This document shows, one piece after another, positions 2,058-43,681 of a DNA stretch of 47,364 bases. Made by a program: the position numbers and the translations under genes. The notes beneath the pieces were generated by a model that worked only from the letters and a program-made list of their open reading frames with translations, ran no database searches and was not told the origin of the DNA. The DNA is taken from sequence record DRR723986_4214; one strand, 5' to 3'. Each line of letters begins with the position of its first letter. The first letter of the stretch is position 1.

Positions 2058-3449
2058 TTAAAACGGCAACTTCACATCGGGTGCTACCGCCAAAATGGCA
2101 GCCTTGAACTCGCCTTGAATACGGGCCAGCGCAGCATCACTGTCGGCTTCAAAACGCATCACCACGACCGGTGTAGTGTTGGACGGGCGCGCGAGCCCAA
2201 AACCGTCGGCATATTCGGCCCGCACACCATCAATGGTATTGACCGATTCCGAACTTGGAAACTTACCCTCGGCCTGCAAACGTTTCACAATGTCAAAGTT
2301 CACACCTTCAGCTGTTTGCAACTGCAATTCGGGTGTGCTCGATGAATTGGGCAATGCATTCAGTTCAGCGCTGGGGTCGCCGCTGCGCGACAAAATCTCC
2401 AGCAAACGCACGCCGGCGTACAAACCATCGTCAAAACCGAACCAGCGTTCCTTGAAAAACACATGGCCGCTCATCTCGCCGGCCAGTGGGGCACCGGTTT
2501 CCTTCAACTTGGCCTTGATCAATGAATGGCCGGTCTTCCACATCAGTGGCTCACCACCTGCAGCTTTTACAGCCTTGGCCACATGACGTGTGCACTTCAC
2601 GTCATAAATCACCATGGCGCCAGGGTTACGCGCAATCACATCACGCGCGAACAAAATCAACTGGCGGTCGGGATAAATAATTTCACCGTCTTTGGTCACA
2701 ACGCCCAGGCGGTCGCCATCGCCGTCAAAGGCCAAACCAATTTCAGCATCGCCGTTTTTCACGCAAGCAATCAGGTCTTGCAGGTTCTCTGGATGAGCAG
2801 GGTCAGGATGGTGATTGGGGAAATTGCCATCCACCTCACAAAACAGCTCTGTCACCTCACAGCCCAAAGCTTCATAGAGTGTTTTTGCAAATGCACCCGC
2901 TACACCGTTGCCACAATCGACGGCAATTTTCATGGGACGTGCCAGTTTGATGTGCCCCAGAATATTGCTCAAATAATCAGGCCACACATTCAGTTCACGG
3001 TAGCCACCGCGCTGTACGCCAGGTACTACGCCACGCACGGGCTTCTCGGTTTGAATCCATTTCAACAGTCCCTGAATGGTATCGCCGTACAAGGTTTCAC
3101 CAGCCACCATCATTTTCAGGCCGTTGTACTGCGGGGGGTTGTGGCTGCCGGTCACTTGCACACCGGTGCCATTGCCCAGCAAGAAGGTTGCAAAATAAAC
3201 CAGTGGGGTTGCCACCATGCCCACATCCACCACATTCACGCCCGCATCCCGAAAACCATCGGCCAGTGCGCCACACAGGCGTGGGCCACTCAAACGCCCA
3301 TCTCGCCCCACCACCGCCTCGTTTTTGCCGCGACTCAAGGCCAACTGCCCCAAAGCACGCCCCACGCAATAGGCAGCTTCTTCGGTCAAGGTGTCGTCCA
3401 CAATGCCGCGAATGTCATAGGCTTTGAAAATAGAGGAGGAGATGCTCAT
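2058..3449 (-). CDS. algC: Phosphomannomutase/phosphoglucomutase (AlgC-like)
   Basis: FKAYDIRG, VTGSHNP (catalytic Ser), FDGDGDR (metal loop), AGEMSGH and RPSNTTP motifs; start trimmed to ATG 3449. Confidence 0.93.
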   Translation of the reverse strand: MSISSSIFKAYDIRGIVDDTLTEEAAYCVGRALGQLALSRGKNEAVVGRDGRLSGPRLCGALADGFRDAGVNVVDVGMVATPLVYFATFLLGNGTGVQVTGSHNPPQYNGLKMMVAGETLYGDTIQGLLKWIQTEKPVRGVVPGVQRGGYRELNVWPDYLSNILGHIKLARPMKIAVDCGNGVAGAFAKTLYEALGCEVTELFCEVDGNFPNHHPDPAHPENLQDLIACVKNGDAEIGLAFDGDGDRLGVVTKDGEIIYPDRQLILFARDVIARNPGAMVIYDVKCTRHVAKAVKAAGGEPLMWKTGHSLIKAKLKETGAPLAGEMSGHVFFKERWFGFDDGLYAGVRLLEILSRSGDPSAELNALPNSSSTPELQLQTAEGVNFDIVKRLQAEGKFPSSESVNTIDGVRAEYADGFGLARPSNTTPVVVMRFEADSDAALARIQGEFKAAILAVAPDVKLPF

Positions 3450-3572
3450 GGTTGAATACCCGAAATAGTCAAAATAGAAAGTTGAGAACGCAAGGGCCTG
3501 ATCCAACTCCACGCGTTGAATACATAGACTCAAGGCATAATACTACTTTCGTTGTTTTGGTTTGTTTTCAAT

Positions 3573-4418
3573 ATGGCCAACTATGTGATTGGCGACGTTC
3601 AGGGTTGTCTGGATTCCTTATTGACGCTACTGGATAAAATCCGGTTCAACCCTCAAAACGACACGCTGTGGTTTGCCGGCGATCTGGTCAATCGAGGCCC
3701 AAGGTCTCTGGACACCCTGAGATTCATCAAAAACCTGGGAGAGAATGCCCACACCGTGCTGGGCAACCATGATTTGCATCTGCTGGCACTTTGGTGCAAC
3801 AGTGGCCGCAGCCATGAAAGCGACACCATTGCCGAAGTGGTTAACGCACCAGATGGCGAAGAACTGGTGGACTGGCTGCGTGGCCAACCCTTGGCCCTTC
3901 GCTTGCCTGTCGTCGACAACACTTTGAACGGCGCCCTACTGACCCACGCAGGCCTGTTGCCGCAATGGAGTTTCGACGATGCCTTGGCCTTGTCCGATGA
4001 GGTACGGCAGGTGTTGTCTGGTCCAGACTGGCAGGCTTTCATGGCTGAACTTTACGGCAACAAACCCAACCGTTGGGAACAGTCGCTGGAGGGATTTGAT
4101 CGCCTGCGGCTGATCGTGAACGTGTTTACCCGCATGCGCATGATGCGCGACGACGGCAAAATCGACTTCAAATACAAACTGGAACCTGCCGATGCACCTC
4201 CAGAACTGAAACCATGGTTTGAGCTCGAACGAGGGTTTTCAGGCGAGGGGCCCATTGTTTTCGGGCATTGGTCCACGTTGGGGCAACTGAAAAACAAAGC
4301 TGGTTATTGCCTGGACACAGGCTGCGTATGGGGTGGTCAGCTGACCGCACTTCGTCTGGAAGATCAAGCGATCATTCAAGTGGATGCGGTAGAACCGCCC
4401 TTGCCCACCATTCCCTGA
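3573..4418 (+). CDS. apaH: Symmetrical bis(5'-nucleosyl)-tetraphosphatase
   Basis: IGDVQGC, GDLVNRGP, LGNHDLHLL, HAG, FGHWS and LDTGCVWGG motifs; ATG 3573. Confidence 0.95.
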   Translation: MANYVIGDVQGCLDSLLTLLDKIRFNPQNDTLWFAGDLVNRGPRSLDTLRFIKNLGENAHTVLGNHDLHLLALWCNSGRSHESDTIAEVVNAPDGEELVDWLRGQPLALRLPVVDNTLNGALLTHAGLLPQWSFDDALALSDEVRQVLSGPDWQAFMAELYGNKPNRWEQSLEGFDRLRLIVNVFTRMRMMRDDGKIDFKYKLEPADAPPELKPWFELERGFSGEGPIVFGHWSTLGQLKNKAGYCLDTGCVWGGQLTALRLEDQAIIQVDAVEPPLPTIP

Positions 4419-18543: not shown

Positions 18544-20547
18544 ATGCTTTCATCGCAAAAAATCGGGCTGTTGCGTGCACTCATTGCCAACAGCGGCATC
18601 ATTTCGCTTCACTCACGCGCTTTACTGGTTTGCGTTACCGCTTTGCTGGCACTGTCCCTGTGCATCTATGCCATTTTGAATAATCAGATCAGTGAGCAAC
18701 TGGCTGAACGTATGGACCAACTGCTTACCGCAAAAGCACAGGCCATTGATCACACCGACCACTCGGGGCACGACCACACCCTGGCCATGACGCCGGTGTA
18801 TTACCACTCCGGCGATCTGGAAGATGCGCAAGGCACCTTGCACTGGCCTAAAGATTGCGAACCTTCCCACCCCCCCTCGGCATCGAGAATTCATCGATTC
18901 AAGTGTGAAAACGGTGTACGCCTGCATGCACTCCAGGCAAGGCTGCCTCGCGAGCAGGCCACACACCAAACGATTACCTTGTGGGCCACGCACTCGACAA
19001 GCAGCACACCACTCAGCATGCGGGCCGAAGAGGCACTTGGCCTTGCTGTGCTGGTATTGCTGATCAGTACCTTGTGCAGCCGCTGGATCAGCCAGTCCAT
19101 CACGCACCCCTTGGGGGAAATCACCACCAGCGCCCAACTTATGGCTGAAGGTAATTACGACTGGCGCCTTCCCGACAGCTCCATCCGCGAAATCAACCAA
19201 TTGGCGTCCACATTCAACCGGATGGCAAAAAGTCTGCAAGAACGTGACAAGGTGATTCGTCGCACTGCCTACAAAGATCAATTGACCGGACTGGACAACC
19301 GCGCCTATTTGACGCTTGCCTTGCGAGAGCGCACACAATGCGCACGTGAACCATTGAGTATTTTGATTTGGGGCATCGATAACCTCGACAGCATTAACGA
19401 GGTACTCGGGCACGATGTTGCGGACAAGGTCTTGGTCAAAGTGGCACGCAAGGCCAGTCGCATTTGCCGTGAAAACCTCGTCATTGCCAGACTCGAAGGC
19501 AATATCTTCTGCATGCTAATGCCACGAAAACTGCTGGAAAGCATGCTGAAAAAACACACATTAAAGCGTATTTTACAGGGCTCACTGCGCGTACAAAACT
19601 ATCAACTGGACATTCAAAGCCACGCTGGCCTTGCACATTATCCTGAACATGGCCAATGCCCTGAAACACTCATGCGCCGGGCAGAAATCGCACGCCAACT
19701 GGCCAAGAAAACACGCCAGACCAACATCGTTTTCGAGGCTCGGCTTGAACAGCGCTCAGCCAATCGCCTTGAACTGATTGCGCAACTGCGCAAAGCAATC
19801 ATTGACAACGAGTTTTGCCTGTTTTTTCAACCCAAATTAAACCTGCGCACCAACAACATTAACCAGGCAGAAGTGTTGTTGCGCTGGAACCACCCTGTTC
19901 ATGGCTTGATTGCACCAGGCGCCTTTATTGAACTTGCCGAGCAAACCGGCATGATCCGCGACATCACTCGCCTGGTGATCAAACAAACCTACGCCATCAT
20001 CAATCTTTGTGCCAATCAAAACATCAGGCTGTCGCTCAACCTTTCGGCCATGGACCTGGAAGACTCCGGACTGATTGATTTCATGCACCACATGCATGAA
20101 CAGCAACCGGAGGCCTCTCGCCACATCGTGCTGGAAATCACTGAAAGCGCCGCCATGCGGGATCCCGAACAGGCCTTGGACGCACTCAATCAACTGGCCG
20201 CCATGCATTTTCAGATCGCTGTGGACGACTTTGGCACTGGCTACTCCTCTCTGGCCTATCTGAAACGCTTCCCGGTCACCGAGTTGAAAATTGACCGCTC
20301 ACTGGTGCAGGGCGCAGACCTGGACATGGATGGACAGATCATTCTTGAATCCACCATCGAAATGGGCCACATCATGGGCTTGCTGGTCACCACTGAAGGC
20401 GTGGAAACCCAGTCTGAATACGAATTGGTCAAAAAACTGGGGGCCGATTATGTCCAAGGCTTCTGGTTGTCCAAACCCATGCCGTTTGAGGAATTCAAAC
20501 TGAAACACCTGGTGGGTAACCACGACCAGCTGGTTCAACACCTCTAA
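18544..20547 (+). CDS. Membrane HAMP-GGDEF(degenerate)-EAL protein, probable c-di-GMP phosphodiesterase
   Basis: 2 TM segments, HAMP (ITHPL...EINQLASTFNRM), DQLTGLDNR, ARLEGNIF in place of GGDEF, EVLLRW, LEITES, DDFGTGYSSL, LKIDRS, EGVET and QGF motifs. Confidence 0.9.
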   Translation: MLSSQKIGLLRALIANSGIISLHSRALLVCVTALLALSLCIYAILNNQISEQLAERMDQLLTAKAQAIDHTDHSGHDHTLAMTPVYYHSGDLEDAQGTLHWPKDCEPSHPPSASRIHRFKCENGVRLHALQARLPREQATHQTITLWATHSTSSTPLSMRAEEALGLAVLVLLISTLCSRWISQSITHPLGEITTSAQLMAEGNYDWRLPDSSIREINQLASTFNRMAKSLQERDKVIRRTAYKDQLTGLDNRAYLTLALRERTQCAREPLSILIWGIDNLDSINEVLGHDVADKVLVKVARKASRICRENLVIARLEGNIFCMLMPRKLLESMLKKHTLKRILQGSLRVQNYQLDIQSHAGLAHYPEHGQCPETLMRRAEIARQLAKKTRQTNIVFEARLEQRSANRLELIAQLRKAIIDNEFCLFFQPKLNLRTNNINQAEVLLRWNHPVHGLIAPGAFIELAEQTGMIRDITRLVIKQTYAIINLCANQNIRLSLNLSAMDLEDSGLIDFMHHMHEQQPEASRHIVLEITESAAMRDPEQALDALNQLAAMHFQIAVDDFGTGYSSLAYLKRFPVTELKIDRSLVQGADLDMDGQIILESTIEMGHIMGLLVTTEGVETQSEYELVKKLGADYVQGFWLSKPMPFEEFKLKHLVGNHDQLVQHL

Positions 20548-24387: not shown

Positions 24388-24596
24388 GGAACACTCGGTA
24401 AGTGACAAGGAAAGCCAGCATTTTACTCCCTTGGCCCCAGAAAATCCCGGGAATCCAGAACGAAGGGCGATCTGAACTTTCGAGCGACCCCAGTCACTCA
24501 AGGGAAGCATTTTCATTAATGCGACAGCGCTCGTTGCCCAAATGCCCGAAGCACGTTGTCTTTTTAGCCCTCATCAATACTCTTGGAGCACTCCAC

Positions 24597-25184
24597 ATGT
24601 TGAAGCAATCCCTTAAATCCTTGTCCATTCTGGCTGCATTGTTGTCCATGCACTCAGTTGCACAGGCCACCTGTCAAGGCAATGACTGTCAAGTTGAAAT
24701 CGATGCCAATGTTGAATTTGACAGCAGCTATTACCTCAGCCCAAACCACAACGGCATTTTCATTCAAAGCAACACCGGCACCAATGCGGCAATCGTTGAT
24801 CTGCAAAACGTGGTCATGCGCGACAACGGCGATATCACCGGTTCAGCCCAGGCTGTGGGCAACAACATTGCCATTTCTCTCAGTTCATCATCCAAAGTAC
24901 CTGTTCGCCATGTGTCCCAAAGCAACTATGGCGATCAACTGGCGTCAGTCAACCTGTCCCAGCGCAGCACATCAAAAACCGGCGAAGTCCTTGTAGAAGC
25001 AGTTTCAATTGGCAACAACTTCAGCCTGAACCTCGACAACACCAGCCTGGCCGAATTGTCAGTGGCCCAATGCAACGTCAGCGACAACGTGGCTGTGGCT
25101 GAATACCGTTGGGATCCAACCCGCCTCACAGCGTCAGCTACCGCAGTTGGCAACAACATTTCAATTGGCGGCGCGCGTCCTTAA
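24597..25184 (+). CDS. Secreted Asn/Gln/Ser-rich repeat protein, HfaD-like / curlin-like
   Basis: GGAG RBS and ATG 24597; Sec signal ending AQA; three repeats QxN...AxAxGNN[IF]x[IL]; first gene of the operon with the HfaA- and HfaB-like genes. Confidence 0.65.
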   Translation: MLKQSLKSLSILAALLSMHSVAQATCQGNDCQVEIDANVEFDSSYYLSPNHNGIFIQSNTGTNAAIVDLQNVVMRDNGDITGSAQAVGNNIAISLSSSSKVPVRHVSQSNYGDQLASVNLSQRSTSKTGEVLVEAVSIGNNFSLNLDNTSLAELSVAQCNVSDNVAVAEYRWDPTRLTASATAVGNNISIGGARP

Positions 25185-25282
25185 TTGAACTTTTTTGCCT
25201 CAAGTGACAACCCACAGCCAAAGGTCGCTTGGGGCACCTTACCCCCGCAAAACTCATCCAGAAACACCCAGGAAACCGTCAA

Positions 25283-25603
25283 ATGAAATTACTCAAGCTT
25301 TGCTTTGTCACTCTAGCCCTGGGCCTTGGTAACGCACACGCACAAACATTTGAAGGCAATGTCAGCTCGTTCGAAACACCTTTCGGTATGCGCAGCATCA
25401 CCGACATTGACTCACCCGCAGGCACTCGCCGCGACGCGAACTTTAACCGCACCCAAGTTGAATCACCAGGCTGGGGATTTACCTCCACGGCGATTGGAAA
25501 CTTGATCAATGTGCAAACCGAAGGCAACAACAACACCATCGTCATTAACGCCACCCAGATCAACAACGGCTCTCAAAACGCGTCGATCGACGGCGGCTTC
25601 TGA
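25283..25603 (+). CDS. Holdfast anchoring protein HfaA-like (small secreted amyloid-like protein)
   Basis: Signal peptide ending AHA; C-terminal STAIGNLINVQTEGNNNTIVINATQINNG resembles the HfaA AIGNxLNVxxxGxxNTVIVNxxQxNxG segment. Confidence 0.72.
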   Translation: MKLLKLCFVTLALGLGNAHAQTFEGNVSSFETPFGMRSITDIDSPAGTRRDANFNRTQVESPGWGFTSTAIGNLINVQTEGNNNTIVINATQINNGSQNASIDGGF

Positions 25604-25643
25604 TCCAAAGTCACTTACTGCTCTTGAATACAAAAGGCCCACT

Positions 25644-26792
25644 ATGCTTCGCTATCCGCTTCGAAAATCTGCATTTATCTCGGTGCTTGCCGCATCGGCC
25701 AGTGCATGCACAACGCTGCCTTCCTTCAGCGAAGCGCAGTACGTGAGTCCCTTCGACGGAGCAAGCGTAGTGGAAAACACAACCCGCTACAGCCCGGCAC
25801 TGGAATGCCTAAAGCCGCTGATAGGCGGGCGAGGTCCCAATGCAAAACGCTTTGCTGTTGGACGGGTCAGTGATTTCACGGGCAAAGAGGACCTGGTCAA
25901 CGGAAAACGAATCACACAAGGCGCAGCGTTGATGGTGATTTCTGCGTTGGCAAAAACAGGAGTTCCTATGGTTGAGCGTTTCGACACCTCAATTGCCGAC
26001 ATGGAATTGAAATACGCTGACAACAAACTGATCACTGACAACCCGGACAGCAAAGCACATCGACAAATTTTTTCGGGTTCGCTGCCAGGCTCTGACTATC
26101 ACATCGTGGGGGGCATCACCGAAGTAAACTACAACATTCGCAGTGGCAGTCTGGAGTCATCCATTCGCTTCATCGGCGCCGCAGCTCGCTACTTTGTCAT
26201 GAATGTGGCCGTTGATTTGCGTGTAGTGAATACCAAAACACTTGAAGTGGTGAACATACAAAGCCTTCAAAAACAGATTATTGGTACTGAGTTGAATGGG
26301 GGTTACTTCCGCCTGTTCAGCGATGGTCTGGTCGATGTCAACGCCGCTGAACGGACGCAAGAACCAATTCAAAAAGGTGTTCGAATGGTGATTGAACACG
26401 CCGTGTTCAACATGTTGACCGAGATGAACAAGGTGCCAGCGCAAGACTGCGCAAGATTGAGCACTGCAAAATCCGGTGAGCAGCATGGCCATCAATCGAA
26501 CACGGTAGCCAAACAGCGCAGCAACAATTCAATTGTGCTGACACCACCCCCTGCATCAAACCCGGCTCAGCAAGCGCCGAGCATTCTGATTGACCCCTAC
26601 ACGGGTGAAATCATTCGCGAAGCAAGCAGTGAGAACCCAGTCGTTTCGTCCTCGCAAAGCGAGGTAACTGAATTGAAAGGTTTGTTTGGTCAAAACAGCA
26701 ATGCTCAAACCACATCTCAAGAGTCAAGCGGCAACACCACCCGTGAAATGCAGGAGAAACTGCTGTGGGGTAGCCGCCCCCAAATTCGCTGA
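25644..26792 (+). CDS. HfaB / CsgG-family outer-membrane lipoprotein
   Basis: Lipobox ASAC; AVGRVSDFTGK, ITQGAALMVISALAK, VERFDTSIADMELKYADNKLI, GGITEVNYNIRS, DLRVVNTKTLEVV, SLQKQIIG and EPIQ motifs of the CsgG/HfaB family. Confidence 0.85.
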   Translation: MLRYPLRKSAFISVLAASASACTTLPSFSEAQYVSPFDGASVVENTTRYSPALECLKPLIGGRGPNAKRFAVGRVSDFTGKEDLVNGKRITQGAALMVISALAKTGVPMVERFDTSIADMELKYADNKLITDNPDSKAHRQIFSGSLPGSDYHIVGGITEVNYNIRSGSLESSIRFIGAAARYFVMNVAVDLRVVNTKTLEVVNIQSLQKQIIGTELNGGYFRLFSDGLVDVNAAERTQEPIQKGVRMVIEHAVFNMLTEMNKVPAQDCARLSTAKSGEQHGHQSNTVAKQRSNNSIVLTPPPASNPAQQAPSILIDPYTGEIIREASSENPVVSSSQSEVTELKGLFGQNSNAQTTSQESSGNTTREMQEKLLWGSRPQIR

Positions 26793-26833
26793 TGTCGACA
26801 AACTTCCAGATCACCGCGCCGCCTGCAGTCAGC

Positions 26834-26868
26834 AAAAAAAAGCCTCAAGTTTCCTTGAGGCTTTTTTT
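26834..26868. terminator. Bidirectional rho-independent terminator
   Basis: aaaaaaagcctcaag-tttc-cttgaggcttttttt between the hfaB-like gene and the convergent hemolysin-family gene. Confidence 0.9.
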
Positions 26869-26907
26869 GCGGGTTTATTACCCGGGTTTGTTCACTGGCG
26901 CGTCAGG

Positions 26908-31243: not shown

Positions 31244-33304
31244 CTACTTGGACTCGGTTTTGACTGAGCCAGTGACATTGTTTTCGGCCACGCAATTTTC
31301 TTTTGGTGGATAGAAAAACTCGCCAGGACTCTTGAAAAATCGTTTGAAAATACGTCCGGCCAGCGAGAGGCTCTCCAGCTTGCGAACCCCGCGCGCCCGT
31401 AAGGCCGTGAAAAATGCCAAGCTAAAGCTCACGGCCAAATTCACCATACCGATCAGGAAAACGCCCACAGCGGCAATCGCCACCTCCAGTCCGCTCAACA
31501 TGAATTCATGGGCCTGAATTCCGTAAGCCATGTTTGCCGCGGCAAAGGTGATGTGCCGAATATCGATGGGCAAACCAAGAATGAGTCCAATAAAACCAGC
31601 CGAACCCAACATGCAACCGAAAAAGAAGTTGCCTGCCAAGGCCCCCGTGTTCTTGCTCAAATAATCAGCCAATTTGTTGGAGCGAACCACACCCAAGCGC
31701 TTGCGCAGCCAGGGCACCTTGCGAATCCGATCCGGAATACGGTGGTAAATCGACAGGTTGTCGTAGTAACCCGCAATCACACCTGCCAAAAACAGGAACA
31801 CCCCGGCAATTGCAGCATGGGGCAAAGCTGCAGACAACAAGGGATTAAGCTCCAGCAACATTTTCTCGCCTTTCTCGATTGCCACAGGCGGTTCTCCGAG
31901 CAAGAAAGTGAGCCCCACGGCAACCACGGTGGCCGTGGCAAATGCGGGCAGCACATTGCCCCAAATCGAGATGAATTGGGTGCGGGCAACCTGGGTAATC
32001 AAATCTGCCACCCGGTCGGCCGAGCTTAAGCGGCCATTGGCAGCGTCAATGGCTGCAGCGATTCGCGCCGCAGTCATGGCAGGCTGTTTGGTCGCGATGG
32101 TGAAGCCCAACAAATGAATGATCACAAAGCCAATGCCATAATTCAGGCTGAAAAATACGGCCTCCCAAAATGGGGGCAAATGCCAACTTGAAATGCCAGC
32201 TTTGAACAGGGAAAGAAGCGCAATAATGACGCCTGCACCCATGGCAGCCCGGGCCATTTTCCAGTATTCCGACCGGGTTTCAGTGGCGTATTTCTCGCCA
32301 GATTGGCTCGCATGCTCGGTAATGCGCAGAGCCAGCTTGTCAGTCAAACCTCGCCACAAATCGGTGATCGAATGTTTGCGGTTTTCTTCCTTGGTCAACG
32401 TGCAGAAAAACTGCACGCACGTGCCCACCCGATTGTCGGTGGGCAAGGCACCCAAGAGCTGCAAAAGCCGACGCATGCGGTTGATCGATTGCTCCAGCCG
32501 GATCAATTGCATACTGAGCGTGACAGAAATGCCTTGAACACGCGCCTGTGCGTAGGCTTTCTTGATTTGGCCCTGACACTGGTCCAGCAGCACATCGAGA
32601 TGAACACCCAAATCATGCAAAGGCTCCATATGGCTGAGCTTTTCATGGGCCTGCGCGATCATGCTGCGCAGCTCGAGGTGTTGTTCGACAAACGGAGATG
32701 TATGACGCTCAGAAATACCGAGGCAACGTACCACTTCGGAATCAATGCCAAGGGCGGCTATTCGCACCGCCAGCATTTCCATGGCCTCGAGCATTTCATG
32801 TTGAATGCGCTTCCAAAGGGGCATGGCCGGGTTCAACCATTCCAGTACGTGAAACAACCTTGTCCAGTTGGCCACGCTGATCGACTCAAGCCACTCATGG
32901 TCGTCCGGTTTGGTGAACATCAGGCTAAGCGACTCGCGCACTGTTTTGTCTTCAACCGTGGCCGGCAACAGGCGCTGGAAAATCCGGTTTTTCATGGCCT
33001 GACCGAATGTTTCATTACCCAGAATGCCGAGCTCGGCGAAGGTATATCGATAACGTGATTCTTTCAGGAATTGTTCAAGATAGCCTTTGACCTGCACGCG
33101 CAGGTCGTTGGACTGTTCAAGCGCCTCCACCAGCATGGAGAATCGCCGCTCGATTTCGAAATCAGAGCCAGGAGCCCCTTCTCGAAACCATTCCATGAGG
33201 TGGCACAAGTGGGCAATGTCCGCCTCGTGCTCATTGTCTGGACCCATCCCGTTCAGGATGGTCAGCAGCGCACCTCGAATATTGTAGTTTGGGTTCGTTG
33301 CCAT
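31244..33304 (-). CDS. Multi-TM membrane protein of the 'site-specific recombinase Gcr' (SpecificRecomb) family
   Basis: ITEHASQSGEKY, SLNYG, FTIATKQPAMTA, R-x-QF-x-GNV, GYYDN, GNFFFG and GLPIDIRHITF motifs; hydrophobic C-terminal half. Confidence 0.8.
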   Translation of the reverse strand: MATNPNYNIRGALLTILNGMGPDNEHEADIAHLCHLMEWFREGAPGSDFEIERRFSMLVEALEQSNDLRVQVKGYLEQFLKESRYRYTFAELGILGNETFGQAMKNRIFQRLLPATVEDKTVRESLSLMFTKPDDHEWLESISVANWTRLFHVLEWLNPAMPLWKRIQHEMLEAMEMLAVRIAALGIDSEVVRCLGISERHTSPFVEQHLELRSMIAQAHEKLSHMEPLHDLGVHLDVLLDQCQGQIKKAYAQARVQGISVTLSMQLIRLEQSINRMRRLLQLLGALPTDNRVGTCVQFFCTLTKEENRKHSITDLWRGLTDKLALRITEHASQSGEKYATETRSEYWKMARAAMGAGVIIALLSLFKAGISSWHLPPFWEAVFFSLNYGIGFVIIHLLGFTIATKQPAMTAARIAAAIDAANGRLSSADRVADLITQVARTQFISIWGNVLPAFATATVVAVGLTFLLGEPPVAIEKGEKMLLELNPLLSAALPHAAIAGVFLFLAGVIAGYYDNLSIYHRIPDRIRKVPWLRKRLGVVRSNKLADYLSKNTGALAGNFFFGCMLGSAGFIGLILGLPIDIRHITFAAANMAYGIQAHEFMLSGLEVAIAAVGVFLIGMVNLAVSFSLAFFTALRARGVRKLESLSLAGRIFKRFFKSPGEFFYPPKENCVAENNVTGSVKTESK

Positions 33305-40560: not shown

Positions 40561-41721
40561 GTGACCATGACTACAGAAAACCAACCAGCTAAACACCAGG
40601 TCGAACAAATACCTTTGATCAACCTAGACTTTGATATTTATAACCCTAGATTTGGAGCAGAAGTTGGTGCGAGGCAATCTCAACAACAAGTGCTAAATCA
40701 CTTGGTTCAAACATTTGGAGTTGAAGACGTCCTAAGCTCTATAGCGGTGAATGGCTACTTTGTCGCGGAACCTGTTATATGCAAACGTGAGGGCAAGCGG
40801 TTCGTTGTGATCGAGGGCAATAGAAGACTTGCCGCATGCCTCATTCTCTCGGGAGACCCTAGGGCCAAAGATCAAAAAAAATTAACCGCACAATTTCAAG
40901 GCTTACAAAAGCTATCGAACAAGCCCCCCTTCAATAGCATTGCATGTATTGTTTTCGAACCAGAAGAAAGTAAGCACGACTTACTCGCTTATCTTGGGGT
41001 TAGACACATTGCATCATCTCAAGGCTGGGATTCTTATGCAAAAGCAGCTTGGATTGCACGAGCTGTAGAAGAAAATGACATGTCATTAGTAGACATTGCT
41101 GCCATGACCGGAGATCAGAATAAGACCGTCAGTCATCTGCTGGAGGGATTCTACTTCGTAAAGCAGCTTACGGAGACGGGATTTTTTGACCCTAATTCCA
41201 GCTTGAGAAAAGGCAGGGGAAGCAATCAAAAATTCCCATTCTCGTGGGTTTACACTTTACTTTTTTCGCCAATAGCCAGGCGATTTGTAGGTATCGAAGG
41301 CGAACCTCGACCCAATGCAATTCCACAAGATCGACTGCCAAGAGCTGGGATGCTGCTTGAACGTATGTTTGGCTCGATTGGCAAGTCACCCTCAATCGAC
41401 GACTCTAGAGATATAACCCGGTTAGCGCGTTGCCTTGATGACGACCAAAAAATTGCGTTACTAGAAGCTGGGCGACATATTGATCAAATTGAATTTGAAG
41501 TTCAGCCCCTTGCCGACAAGTTGCGCAAAGGGATCCAAGAATGTCGAGATAAGTTAGGGATTCTAAACGCTGCAGTGTCCGAAACCCCGCCTGATCGATC
41601 AGAGGCTGAACAAGCCAAGACGGCATCCCTCGCCCTCGCACATCTTGCAGCCGAGCTCTACAAAAAGCTTGAGGCAGCGTCGAAACCAGAGCAGTTAACA
41701 GATCTACCCCCAGCCCAATAA
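40561..41721 (+). CDS. ParB/Srx-like N-terminal domain protein with a downstream HTH-like segment
   Basis: LDFDIYNPRF, SIAVNGY, EPVI and VVIEGNRRLAA (GxRR nucleotide-binding motif); helix pair MSLVDIAAMTGDQNKTVSHLL; start GTG 40561 or ATG 40567. Confidence 0.75.
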   Translation: MTMTTENQPAKHQVEQIPLINLDFDIYNPRFGAEVGARQSQQQVLNHLVQTFGVEDVLSSIAVNGYFVAEPVICKREGKRFVVIEGNRRLAACLILSGDPRAKDQKKLTAQFQGLQKLSNKPPFNSIACIVFEPEESKHDLLAYLGVRHIASSQGWDSYAKAAWIARAVEENDMSLVDIAAMTGDQNKTVSHLLEGFYFVKQLTETGFFDPNSSLRKGRGSNQKFPFSWVYTLLFSPIARRFVGIEGEPRPNAIPQDRLPRAGMLLERMFGSIGKSPSIDDSRDITRLARCLDDDQKIALLEAGRHIDQIEFEVQPLADKLRKGIQECRDKLGILNAAVSETPPDRSEAEQAKTASLALAHLAAELYKKLEAASKPEQLTDLPPAQ

Positions 41722-42698
41722 TGACAAACCGAAAAGAAGCGTCAGGTAATCGCACTCGCTACGAAAAGCGAGGTGTATATGAGTCACAGTACAAAAACGC
41801 CGATCAAACAGAATGGGCTGCATTCATTGCTGGTTCAGCTCACATTTCGGCGGGCACCAGAGACGACATGATGTCGGACTCAGCGATGGAAAACGGAGAA
41901 CCCAGCTTGCCTGGAGACAGCTATATGACCAGAGAGGCCGTTGAGGAGGGTCTTCAAGCGTCCGTATTGGAAATAGTAGAAGAGAGGAGCAAGTTGCTCG
42001 GTACAGACGGATATCCCTTTAGGCTCATTAACAACAGTCTTACATTTTCAGGTGAGCTGGACAATCCTTATCTCGCACTTCTCGCCCTGTGCCAACTACC
42101 TACATTGAGCAGCACCGCATATAAAGACGCTCCCATGGCATTTGAATACATGAGTTTAATCGCAGCAAGGGCATATCTTGGGCAAAGATCAAGAGGATGG
42201 CGATTCGGATGGCCGAGGACCAACAACTCTCACATGAAAGTTTCAGATGCAGCAAAAGAACTAAAACGAAGAGCGGGAAATGATGAAGATGCATGGCATT
42301 GGTGCCCAGTGCCGTCCAAACCCGAGATACCTAGTACCCGAGACCTTAAAGATGCAGGAATGGATTTCGTGGCGTGGATACCCTGGATAGACGAGGGCCC
42401 AGGGCAGCTTCACTTGGTAGGACAATGCGCGTGCGGAGAAGACTGGAAGTGGAAGAAACACGATTTAGATTTAAATAAGCTCGGTGAGTGGATGCGCCTC
42501 CCCCACCCCCAACCCATCCGAGGTATTTTTACACCTCGTCATCTAGCTTTGCCAACAATCAGAGATACAACGACGGAGGCTGGTTTGGTATTTGACCGAA
42601 TTCGCATCGCACAAGAGATTCAAAAGTGCGTCGCATCGAGGAAAGTGGCGGGAAAATTTGCTCGAAAGATAGTTTGTATAAGTTTATCTAAAGATTAA
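41721..42698 (+). CDS. Hypothetical protein, candidate PD-(D/E)xK-like restriction endonuclease
   Basis: AFE helix, DAGMDFVAW and GQCACGEDWKWK arrangement resembles an Mrr-like/REase core (E...D...QxK/A); TAATG coupling with the upstream gene; next to an MTase. Confidence 0.5.
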   Translation: MTNRKEASGNRTRYEKRGVYESQYKNADQTEWAAFIAGSAHISAGTRDDMMSDSAMENGEPSLPGDSYMTREAVEEGLQASVLEIVEERSKLLGTDGYPFRLINNSLTFSGELDNPYLALLALCQLPTLSSTAYKDAPMAFEYMSLIAARAYLGQRSRGWRFGWPRTNNSHMKVSDAAKELKRRAGNDEDAWHWCPVPSKPEIPSTRDLKDAGMDFVAWIPWIDEGPGQLHLVGQCACGEDWKWKKHDLDLNKLGEWMRLPHPQPIRGIFTPRHLALPTIRDTTTEAGLVFDRIRIAQEIQKCVASRKVAGKFARKIVCISLSKD

Positions 42699-42736
42699 AT
42701 TCTTCGACTACACCAAAACAATTCGAGCAAACCGGG

Positions 42737-43681
42737 CTAATCCCACATGTTCGGGAGAGCCCGAGCCACCGCCTCAAACAATGGGGGCGGGACGGCATTG
42801 CCGACTACCTTGTATCGCATATCTAGGCTGCCTGCAGAAGTGTCCGGAAACAAGAAATCCCCTGAAAATCCTTGGATTCTCGCTGCCTCTCGATAGCTAA
42901 ATCGCCTTGCCCTCCCCTCGGTTTCAAACCTCCAAACGTTGTGCTCCAATTTTTTAAGAGGTGGACTAATAGGATGCAAAGGCATATGGCGGGGGTTAGC
43001 AACAATAGTTTTGGATACCTGATCCCATCCTTGTCTTCGATTACGACTCAAATAGTACCAATGAAAGTCACGATCATAAAATTCACCCTCTGGCCAATCA
43101 GGGAGATCGCTAATCACATCACGAATTGTCAAGCAGGCCCTCGTACCATCAACTCCATGAGATGGGCCAGGAAAGTCATACTCACACCCCAAATCATCTC
43201 GAAGCCCAACAATGAAAATACGTTTCCTAGCTTGAGCCACTCCATAATCCATTGCGTTCAAAACCTTTGCCTTGAGCGTGTACCCGACGTCTGAGAAAAC
43301 CTTGAATTGATCATGAAGTAAATGTAGGAAGTTCGAACGAACCATACCAGACACATTCTCAACAATGAATGCTTTAGGCCGAATTTGATCCAGCGCCCTA
43401 GCAAACTCAAGATATAAGGTATTAATTTTTTTTGATGGGTCTCTTAACCCCCCCTGACTAAATCCCTGGCATGGGTAACAACCAACAAGCAGTTCTGCTC
43501 TAGGAAAGGTTTTCACCGCAGCAACATTCCCGAGCACGTAATCAGTGGATGGGTGATTTGCGAGATAAACGTCTCGAGCGTATGGTAGTAGATCGTTTGC
43601 CATGACAACGTCAAAGCCAGCAGAGATTACTCCCGCGTCTGATCCACCACACCCCGAAAACAACGATACGGCTTGTGGCAT
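42737..43681 (-). CDS. DNA (cytosine-5)-methyltransferase
   Basis: Motif I LFSGCGG, IV YPCQGFS, VI ENVSG, VIII YGVAQARKRIFIVG, IX REAARIQGF, X GNAVPP. Confidence 0.96.
   Translation of the reverse strand: MPQAVSLFSGCGGSDAGVISAGFDVVMANDLLPYARDVYLANHPSTDYVLGNVAAVKTFPRAELLVGCYPCQGFSQGGLRDPSKKINTLYLEFARALDQIRPKAFIVENVSGMVRSNFLHLLHDQFKVFSDVGYTLKAKVLNAMDYGVAQARKRIFIVGLRDDLGCEYDFPGPSHGVDGTRACLTIRDVISDLPDWPEGEFYDRDFHWYYLSRNRRQGWDQVSKTIVANPRHMPLHPISPPLKKLEHNVWRFETEGRARRFSYREAARIQGFSGDFLFPDTSAGSLDMRYKVVGNAVPPPLFEAVARALPNMWD

Follow-up and report, generated by a model that had tools for sequence, protein, structure and literature searches.

The DNA analysed here is a stretch of 47,364 nucleotides (nt) from sequence record DRR723986_4214, called the window below, and the subject is a group of three co-oriented genes at 24597-26868 of its (+) strand, which encode proteins of 195, 106 and 382 amino acids in intact reading frames. 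Source names of near-identical proteins and loci identify the host of the window as Limnobacter, a freshwater betaproteobacterium (Burkholderiales). A preliminary description, made from the nucleotide sequence, had proposed that the locus is an hfaD-hfaA-hfaB version of the holdfast-anchor genes, and the profile comparisons presented here identify the three genes as homologues of hfaD (in a short form), hfaA and hfaB forming one co-oriented unit. Gene starts were taken as the internal starts that yield signal peptides, which gives the following features.

24517..24596, + strand: non-coding leader; ribosome-binding site GGAG at 24585-24588, read from the sequence
24597..25184, + strand: gene 1, exported protein of 195 amino acids with three 41-52-residue Q-x-N / G-N-N double repeats; putative short, divergent HfaD-family subunit
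25283..25603, + strand: gene 2, exported protein of 106 amino acids, HfaA homologue without the Gly-rich linker of Caulobacterales-type proteins
25644..26792, + strand: gene 3, lipoprotein of 382 amino acids with an HfaB-type CsgG-family channel domain and a C-terminal tail
26832..26870, no strand assigned: intrinsic terminator hairpin between an A-run and a U-run, recognised by folding energy, just past the end of the convergent CNNM/CorC gene

Purine-rich ribosome-binding sites (GGAG, AGGAA and AAGG) are located 6-10 nt 5' of the starts of genes 1, 2 and 3, respectively. The N-terminal hydrophobic signal peptides of proteins 1 and 2, read from the sequence, end in AQA and AHA, and the signal of protein 3 is of the lipoprotein type (...SASA-C22), with Cys22 almost invariant across the family alignment. 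The terminator exhibited an 8-bp stem rich in guanine and cytosine (GC) and a folding energy of -22.3 kcal/mol (z-score -5.9) that was equalled by 0/200 shuffled sequences; the consensus terminator scanner did not list it at 26832-26870. This hairpin closes the operon, and the A-run and U-run on its two sides make bidirectional termination possible. The three co-oriented exported proteins and the strong terminator that had been described were all recovered in this way. A sigma-70 scan gave zero + strand sites upstream of gene 1, where several blocks are kept in six Limnobacter-type loci whose sequences are too alike for a motif to be defined.

We compared the gene 3 product with the curated families of CsgG-like proteins. 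It matched the NCBIfam HfaB model (NF037935) with 284.5 bits (E 6e-85) over model positions 3-262 of 264, against 35 bits on the E. coli CsgG equivalog (NF011731, cut-off 505) and 62.8 bits on Pfam CsgG (PF03783), and was 41 % identical over 277 amino acids to a protein scoring 421 bits on the HfaB model. The claim that the lipoprotein is HfaB-like, not E. coli CsgG-like, agrees with these scores, and the segment quoted as HfaB-like, VERFDTSIADMELKYADNKLI, is present in the protein. Orthologues of the genus scored 276-297.5 bits on NF037935, all below its cut-off, and Caulobacterales-type proteins 383-425 bits. The HfaB-family profile aligned with the solved CsgG structure 4uv2_A (E 1.2e-14, residues 36-229), both transmembrane-hairpin segments included. 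The protein is composed of a channel domain (about residues 17-267) and a Ser/Gln/Pro-rich tail of about 115 amino acids (about 268-382); the family-invariant cysteines C55 and C269 are kept in the alignment, and the tail blocks IDPxTGEI, KGLFG and the terminal MQEKLLWGxRPxIR were found only in the Limnobacter clade, being absent from the other betaproteobacterial-type and the alphaproteobacterial HfaB proteins. The gene 3 product thus carries a CsgG-family channel domain on a lipoprotein, nearer to HfaB than to curli CsgG, and its gene has those of an HfaA homologue and of an HfaD-like protein as co-oriented neighbours, though in the order D-A-B. Judged by these comparisons, it is an HfaB-type CsgG-family protein.

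The gene 2 product matched the NCBIfam HfaA model (NF037934) with 43.7 bits (E 3e-11), the best stretch covering only the C-terminal 34 model positions. Profile-profile alignment (hhalign) of the gene 2 family with HfaA of Caulobacterales-type loci gave 99.2 % with E 7.7e-20; the 99 aligned columns begin in the signal peptide and run to the C-terminus. The homology spans the mature protein, with F-E-x-P-x-G and R-D-x-N-x-N-R motifs in the N-terminal part and AIGN...GxNNTxxI..TQxNxG in the C-terminal part, and the HfaA-like segment TAIGNLINVQTEGNNNTIVINATQINNG, on which the protein had first been recognised as HfaA-like, is present. The match was reciprocal: a hidden Markov model (HMM) of Caulobacterales-type HfaA, whose alignment included one wrong-frame row, matched the window protein with 58.3 bits, and the HMM of Limnobacter gene 2 matched HfaA open reading frames (ORFs) in 11 Caulobacterales-type loci with E 2e-13 to 5e-8. 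Precomputed Pfam 38.1 labels named HfaA (PF27294) were found on 49/52 gene 2 homologues; this name and that of HfaD (PF27277) follow the Atlas listing, and both labels were computed on homologues of the window proteins. On these alignments gene 2 encodes a true HfaA homologue. Alone, the protein is predicted to be disordered, with a low predicted local distance difference test (pLDDT) score of 53.7; this would be in keeping with a subunit that stays unfolded until it assembles. In one genus genome (G008:C2:22862-23158), the match to the HfaA-like gene is interrupted by an in-frame TAA, which may point to a pseudogene or else to a fault in the assembly.

The identity of gene 1 is weaker than the other two, with several lines of evidence in agreement. 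The GNN repeat reported for this protein is a real triplication of a 41-52-residue unit (Q-x-N...A-x-G-N-N), with pairwise z-scores of 5.5-8.7 and 0/1000 shuffled sequences as high. Its orthologues in two other Limnobacter species (G007, G024) matched the NCBIfam HfaD model (NF037936) with 33 and 26.5 bits and also matched an HfaD HMM built in this analysis. hhalign of the gene 1 family with Caulobacterales-type HfaD gave 91.6 % (E 8e-7) over 127 columns, which on the HfaD side lie in its C-terminal third. When 1.84 billion representatives were searched with a profile, 104 relatives were recovered; 61 of them were scanned with NF037936, of which 47 matched at E <= 1e-3 and 1 exceeded the cut-off. 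In the same way, the precomputed HfaD label was present on 51/64 gene 1 homologues, including one 99 % identical (P0176). Gene 1 and HfaD are connected by a short D ORF at locus L059, which was matched by the HMMs of both (36 and 45 bits, respectively). The gene 1 family also matched the HfaA repeat (hhalign 87.7 % over 36 columns), so that part of the HfaD signal stems from the repeat type, one type being shared by the three subunit families. We therefore retain, with less firmness, the short D-like assignment first made for this protein: gene 1 probably encodes a half-length, divergent member of the HfaD family. In the eukaryote protein set 'eukprot', a protein of 240 amino acids (P0206) shows 91 % identity to gene 1 and combines PF27277 with PF03783; most probably this reflects contamination by Limnobacter together with a chimeric gene call.

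The AlphaFold2 model of the gene 1 product is all-beta (pLDDT 75, predicted template modelling score 0.70) and exhibited three sets of paired long strands corresponding to the three repeats. VIA-align comparison of the gene 1 model gave the functional amyloid FapC (Z 5.0, root-mean-square deviation 4.9 A, 113 residues), an antifreeze protein with a flat beta-solenoid (4.8) and the CsgA fibril (3.4), all weak; these neighbours are suggestive of an amyloid-like solenoid and are not proof of one. The gene 1 profile, searched against the sequences of the PDB, gave a chance-level match alone (E 0.37), and genes 1 and 2 matched zero Pfam families at E <= 1, the curlin repeat included. The lack of strong Foldseek and VIA-align matches does not make gene 1 a new fold.

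We then determined the distribution of the module, with genome-level searches based on the nearest genome (G001, 74 % of sampled words shared) and its relatives. Within the genus, HfaB-like genes were found in 23/25 genomes, HfaA-like genes in 24/26 and D-like genes in 23/26; each of the three was present in all 19 genomes of at least 90 % completeness, the misses being genomes of 70-85 % completeness or a contig end. In an order-level draw of 401 genomes from 61 families, HfaB-like proteins at E <= 1e-30 were found only in 3 Limnobacter genomes, and the module was undetected in the other 398. In a phylum-level draw of 401 genomes, 19 matched the HfaB model: 13 exceeded the cut-off (one of them, G781, is unpublished, and no claim is based on it), Limnobacter came next at 285 bits as the best group under the cut-off, and five genomes of other families scored 139-214 bits. 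The ratios of nonsynonymous to synonymous substitution rates (dN/dS) against L. alexandrii were 0.048 for D, 0.067 for A and 0.058 for B. The module is conserved in Limnobacter under purifying selection. Its site is kept as well: in the window nadB, nadC and nadA lie upstream and the CNNM/CorC transporter gene and thiC downstream, and nadC and nadA before the module with (corC) thiC after it recur in a divergent Limnobacter and in Burkholderiaceae metagenome-assembled genomes (MAGs) with GC contents of 0.41-0.56.

A scan of named genomes gave at least 592 HfaB-type loci, of which the best 80 were kept and searched with local HMMs; the locus counts refer to these. The order D-A-B was found in 9/10 betaproteobacterial-type loci (Limnobacter, two Burkholderiaceae MAGs and one 'Pseudomonadota' MAG), and the contig of the tenth ends 164 nt before A. 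Among the 70 alphaproteobacterial-type loci, 55 showed the order A-B-D, 14 were without one or two of the matches, often at contig ends, and one (L067) was ambiguous; no clear case of a D-first order was found among the 70. The D-A-B order and the short D had both been correctly noted for the window. We found also short D ORFs (218-340 amino acids) in 13 alphaproteobacterial loci, seven from Rhizomicrobium, one each from Phaeomarinobacter and Parvibaculaceae and four from MAGs. Seven of the 14 incomplete loci (L070, L086, L087, L092, L100, L113 and L123, from Parvibaculum, Rhodobiaceae and Parvibaculaceae) carry B only, with HfaB-type HMM scores of 379-393 bits, and no ORF neighbouring HfaB in these seven loci matched the HfaA or HfaD HMMs at E <= 1e-4; the cargo of such Parvibaculum-type loci may perhaps belong to another family.

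A quick IQ-TREE phylogeny was calculated from 99 HfaB-domain rows, taken as the best HMM envelope of each locus from L029 to L128 plus the window (L062 and L063 gave no envelope, and all rows were retained), with the root set on two more CsgG-like rows. The 14 betaproteobacterial-type rows formed one clade (Shimodaira-Hasegawa-like approximate likelihood-ratio test support 97) outside a second clade, which holds all 80 alphaproteobacterial-type rows (support 93). The phylogeny that had been proposed as a check thus placed the Limnobacter protein beside alphaproteobacterial HfaB and away from the more CsgG-like rows. The base of the tree is a three-way split that gives an ancient transfer, if there was one, no direction; recent acquisition from Caulobacterales was rejected as unsupported by this tree, the betaproteobacterial rows not being nested among those of Caulobacterales. 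The HfaB-like genes of two MAGs titled 'Gammaproteobacteria bacterium' (L052, L053) share 90 % and 77 % identity with the window gene and fall inside the Limnobacter clade; their titles are coarse labels and not evidence of the module in another class.

Possible partners were searched in genus genomes and in the window. With a model built from ORFs carrying the published motifs, HfaE was found in 0/5 Limnobacter genomes, and 3/4 control genomes of Caulobacterales type outside the build were positive. CsgE and CsgF were each found in 0/5 genus genomes with a positive E. coli control, and the HfaB-like gene is the sole CsgG-family gene in 4/5. An HfsH-type deacetylase is needed for holdfast anchoring in Caulobacter; polysaccharide deacetylases of this kind (PF01522) were found in 0/3 genus genomes. 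No polysaccharide-synthesis, csgE or csgF gene was present among the 40 other ORFs of the window in a Pfam scan, as had been noted for hfs and csgE/csgF. In line with the genome search for hfs-like wzy/wza loci that had been suggested, a Wza gene was looked for and found in 3/3 genus genomes, and its cluster is unlinked to the module, lying in G012 about 0.9 Mb away together with Wzb, Wzc, glycosyltransferases, a flippase, Glf, Ugd and YjbH. In view of this unlinked Wza/Wzb/Wzc polysaccharide cluster, the 'stand-alone' character first attributed to the system is not established. The same cluster of G012 encodes a 980-residue YjbH-family protein (L133:5244-8186, - strand) with two adjacent small ORFs that match no Pfam family.

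All three genes are spanned, at a depth of 2.5-36, by contigs from four RNA libraries (three studies), which are uninformative on strand, ends or level. The contigs of X13, X2 and X11 end at 26841, 26826 and 26810, near the terminator, which is a weak hint only. Together these contigs are weak evidence that the module is expressed at a low level.

The best-described relatives of the module are the holdfast anchors of Caulobacter crescentus and Hirschia baltica (HfaA-HfaB-HfaD with HfaE), in which, as in Limnobacter, the same three exported families form one co-oriented unit. According to two sources, HfaA and HfaD form multimers resistant to sodium dodecyl sulfate (SDS), depend on each other and need HfaB for surface export, with HfaE as a fourth anchor component (PMC6707917; bioRxiv 10.1101/2022.07.20.500906). 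The alignment with Caulobacterales HfaB is continuous from the lipobox through the channel domain at 41 % identity. In contrast, the Limnobacter order is D-A-B instead of A-B-D; its D has 195 amino acids with three repeats and no C-terminal C-x-x-C, compared with about 410-450 amino acids for HfaD; its HfaA is without the Gly-rich linker, and its HfaB carries the genus-specific tail and belongs to a separate clade. Moreover, the host is non-stalked, and HfaE (0/5) and the PF01522 deacetylase (0/3) were not found. The short-HfaD alphaproteobacterial operons of Rhizomicrobium, Phaeomarinobacter, Parvibaculaceae and MAGs resemble the Limnobacter module in combining HfaA and HfaB with a short D (218-340 amino acids), but have the order A-B-D and an HfaB inside the alphaproteobacterial clade; no description of them was found in the literature searched.

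The likeness to the E. coli curli system (CsgA/B/E/F/G) lies in a CsgG-fold lipoprotein channel, secreted subunits with Gln/Asn/Gly ladder repeats and a compact operon. The Limnobacter module differs in its CsgG equivalog score far below the cut-off (35 vs 505 bits), and in having no curlin-repeat match, no CsgE or CsgF (0/5) and a constriction loop shorter by 4 residues, and the gene 1 unit of 41-52 amino acids contrasts with a curli repeat of about 22. Pseudomonas FapC (PDB 9u4u), the best structural neighbour, shares with the gene 1 model a stacked two-sheet beta-solenoid with imperfect repeats, but the match is under the level of kinship and sequence similarity is zero; the Fap system relies on the FapF barrel in place of a channel of the CsgG type. 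A cluster of Acinetobacter baumannii, lying outside both the curli and the Caulobacter systems, also consists of three genes round a CsgG/HfaB-family lipoprotein and is linked to matrix and biofilm, but the partners in it are two lipoproteins of unknown function (bioRxiv 10.1101/2021.05.19.444899), whereas those of Limnobacter belong to the HfaA and HfaD families.

We consider it probable, largely by homology with these systems, that the three genes form an Hfa-type, CsgG-family-dependent surface-polymer module of Limnobacter, whose polymer would act as an adhesin or as a polysaccharide anchor. By analogy with Caulobacter and curli, all three proteins would cross the inner membrane via Sec, and the lipoprotein would be lipidated, sorted to the outer membrane and oligomerised into a channel resembling that of CsgG, through which two beta-solenoid subunits would be exported. 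Both of these, the small HfaA-like protein and the HfaD-like one with its three rungs, would exit unfolded and co-polymerise outside the cell into an amyloid-like surface polymer that withstands heat and SDS; the words 'amyloid' and 'fibre', when used for Limnobacter products, are accordingly to be taken as inferred. The polymer would either adhere to surfaces itself or tether exopolysaccharide to the envelope, in which case the unlinked Wza/Wzb/Wzc cluster of the genus is the candidate source. Expression might perhaps be tied to c-di-GMP signalling, at which the neighbouring genes merely hint.

Several results weigh against this Hfa-type reading. The products of genes 3 and 2 score below the curated HfaB equivalog and HfaA cut-offs (284.5 vs 300 bits and 43.7 vs 50 bits, respectively). 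Gene 1 of the window gave zero matches to NF037936 (cut-off 100 bits) at E <= 1, as did the nearest genome, and was missed at E <= 0.01 by our HfaD HMM; its product is half the HfaD length (195 amino acids vs about 374 model positions), and its cysteines are at positions 26, 31 and 159, the invariant C-terminal C-x-x-C of HfaD (C362/C365) being missing. Foldseek comparison of the gene 1 model with the PDB gave zero matches at E <= 1e-3, the top one being FapC (9u4u) at E 2.7e-3. The pore-constriction loop of gene 3 is not only 4 residues shorter than that of CsgG but also does not carry the CsgG residues, so that the cargo path may differ. To these are added the missing HfaE, deacetylase and polysaccharide linkage noted above, and an RNA depth 20-400 times lower than that of the neighbouring CorC gene (250-1300), with possible DNA carry-over.

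A second explanation, which we regard as possible though doubtful, is an autonomous functional-amyloid fibre: a minimal curli-like system with the D-like protein as major subunit and the A-like protein as minor subunit or nucleator, with no polysaccharide partner. It would account for the lack of nearby hfs-like genes and for the failure to find HfaE (0/5 genomes, with a working control) and an HfsH/PgaB-type deacetylase (0/3); the curlin-like Q/N/G ladder repeats, the FapC and CsgA fold neighbours, best though weak, and a betaproteobacterial clade not nested within the holdfast-bearing Caulobacterales also fit it. However, the sole characterised relatives act as a polysaccharide anchor and not as fibres (PMC6707917); the Pfam curlin repeat, CsgE and CsgF were not found (the last two in 0/5 genomes), and the genus genomes hold an exopolysaccharide export cluster as a potential partner source. 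A wider form of this idea, which we put forward tentatively, is that Hfa modules could be no speciality of Caulobacterales but an old, autonomous CsgG-dependent functional-amyloid system and, after curli and Fap, a third such lineage. The D-A-B form of Limnobacter, for which HfaE, an HfsH-type deacetylase and linked polysaccharide genes were not found, would then build a free-standing adhesive fibre or patch, and the holdfast anchor of stalked bacteria would be a later co-option of such a fibre.

It is unlikely, in our view, that the lipoprotein is a polysaccharide-export helper that mainly aids exopolysaccharide secretion or assembly, as has been proposed for the A. baumannii cluster, with the small proteins as accessories rather than polymer subunits. 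Such a role is suggested by two reports, in which deletion of an A. baumannii CsgG/HfaB-family gene abolished poly-N-acetylglucosamine (PNAG) production and Cup pili (bioRxiv 10.1101/2021.05.19.444899) and a Caulobacter hfaB mutant was more severe than an hfaA hfaD double mutant (bioRxiv 10.1101/2022.07.20.500906). But the A. baumannii partners are two lipoproteins, where here they are HfaA-/HfaD-family repeat proteins with ordinary signal peptides, the PgaB/HfsH-type deacetylase was found in 0/3 genomes, and the polysaccharide cluster has its own Wza channel. That the genes are the relic of an alphaproteobacterial hfa operon, recently transferred or in decay and functionless today, is highly improbable: the rarity in the order (3/401 genomes, all Limnobacter) and scores that all fall just under the curated cut-offs would fit it, but 19/19 high-quality genomes keep the three genes with intact frames and dN/dS of 0.05-0.07, the nadA-thiC site is shared across Limnobacter and Burkholderiaceae MAGs (GC 0.41-0.56), the GC content of the module resembles the surrounding DNA, and the betaproteobacterial clade lies outside the alphaproteobacterial one.

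The system had been put forward as one not known to be described in Burkholderiales. This holds for the literature searched, in which hfa modules of Betaproteobacteria were not found to be treated and the HfaB-holdfast work consisted of Caulobacter and Hirschia studies, metagenomic mentions and the Acinetobacter cluster. It does not hold for the databases: Limnobacter proteins already carry the names HfaA and HfaB at JGI, one is called HfaB by NCBI, and the Pfam 38.1 HfaA and HfaD models match close homologues. The novelty is thus the variant form, its host and the partners not found, the families being already recognised. In one source, HfaA and HfaE are stated to be exclusive to Caulobacterales, with HfaA in no other sequenced genomes (bioRxiv 10.1101/2022.07.20.500906). 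While the literature searched treats the holdfast anchor in this way as specific to Caulobacterales, a complete, rearranged and selected module is here a core trait of a betaproteobacterial genus, and among Alphaproteobacteria other than Caulobacterales the short-D versions of hfa are common. With its three genes, Limnobacter thiooxidans is a natural minimal system in which to ask whether Hfa proteins alone form fibres, anchor polysaccharide, or do both, and the module could be used for studying how a CsgG-type channel handles non-curlin cargo. It may also help to explain the frequent attachment of Limnobacter to algae, cyanobacteria and zooplankton, a pattern taken from paper titles only.

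Other features of the surroundings were observed. A HAMP-GGDEF-EAL protein is encoded two genes upstream of the module (window 18544-20544, + strand), and in one Burkholderiaceae MAG (L057) a GGDEF diguanylate cyclase gene (2940-3938, + strand) lies directly upstream of the D-like gene; these neighbours may tie the module to c-di-GMP control of adhesion. Farther downstream, the stretch 40561-43678 has a GC content of 0.44-0.49 compared with about 0.53 elsewhere in the window; it encodes a C-5 cytosine DNA methylase (42737-43678, - strand) and two ORFs without Pfam family (40561-41718 and 41721-42695), and may be a restriction-modification islet. Finally, a 685-residue protein with a full-length SpecificRecomb match (PF10136, 676 bits) is encoded at 31244-33301 of the - strand, amid housekeeping genes.

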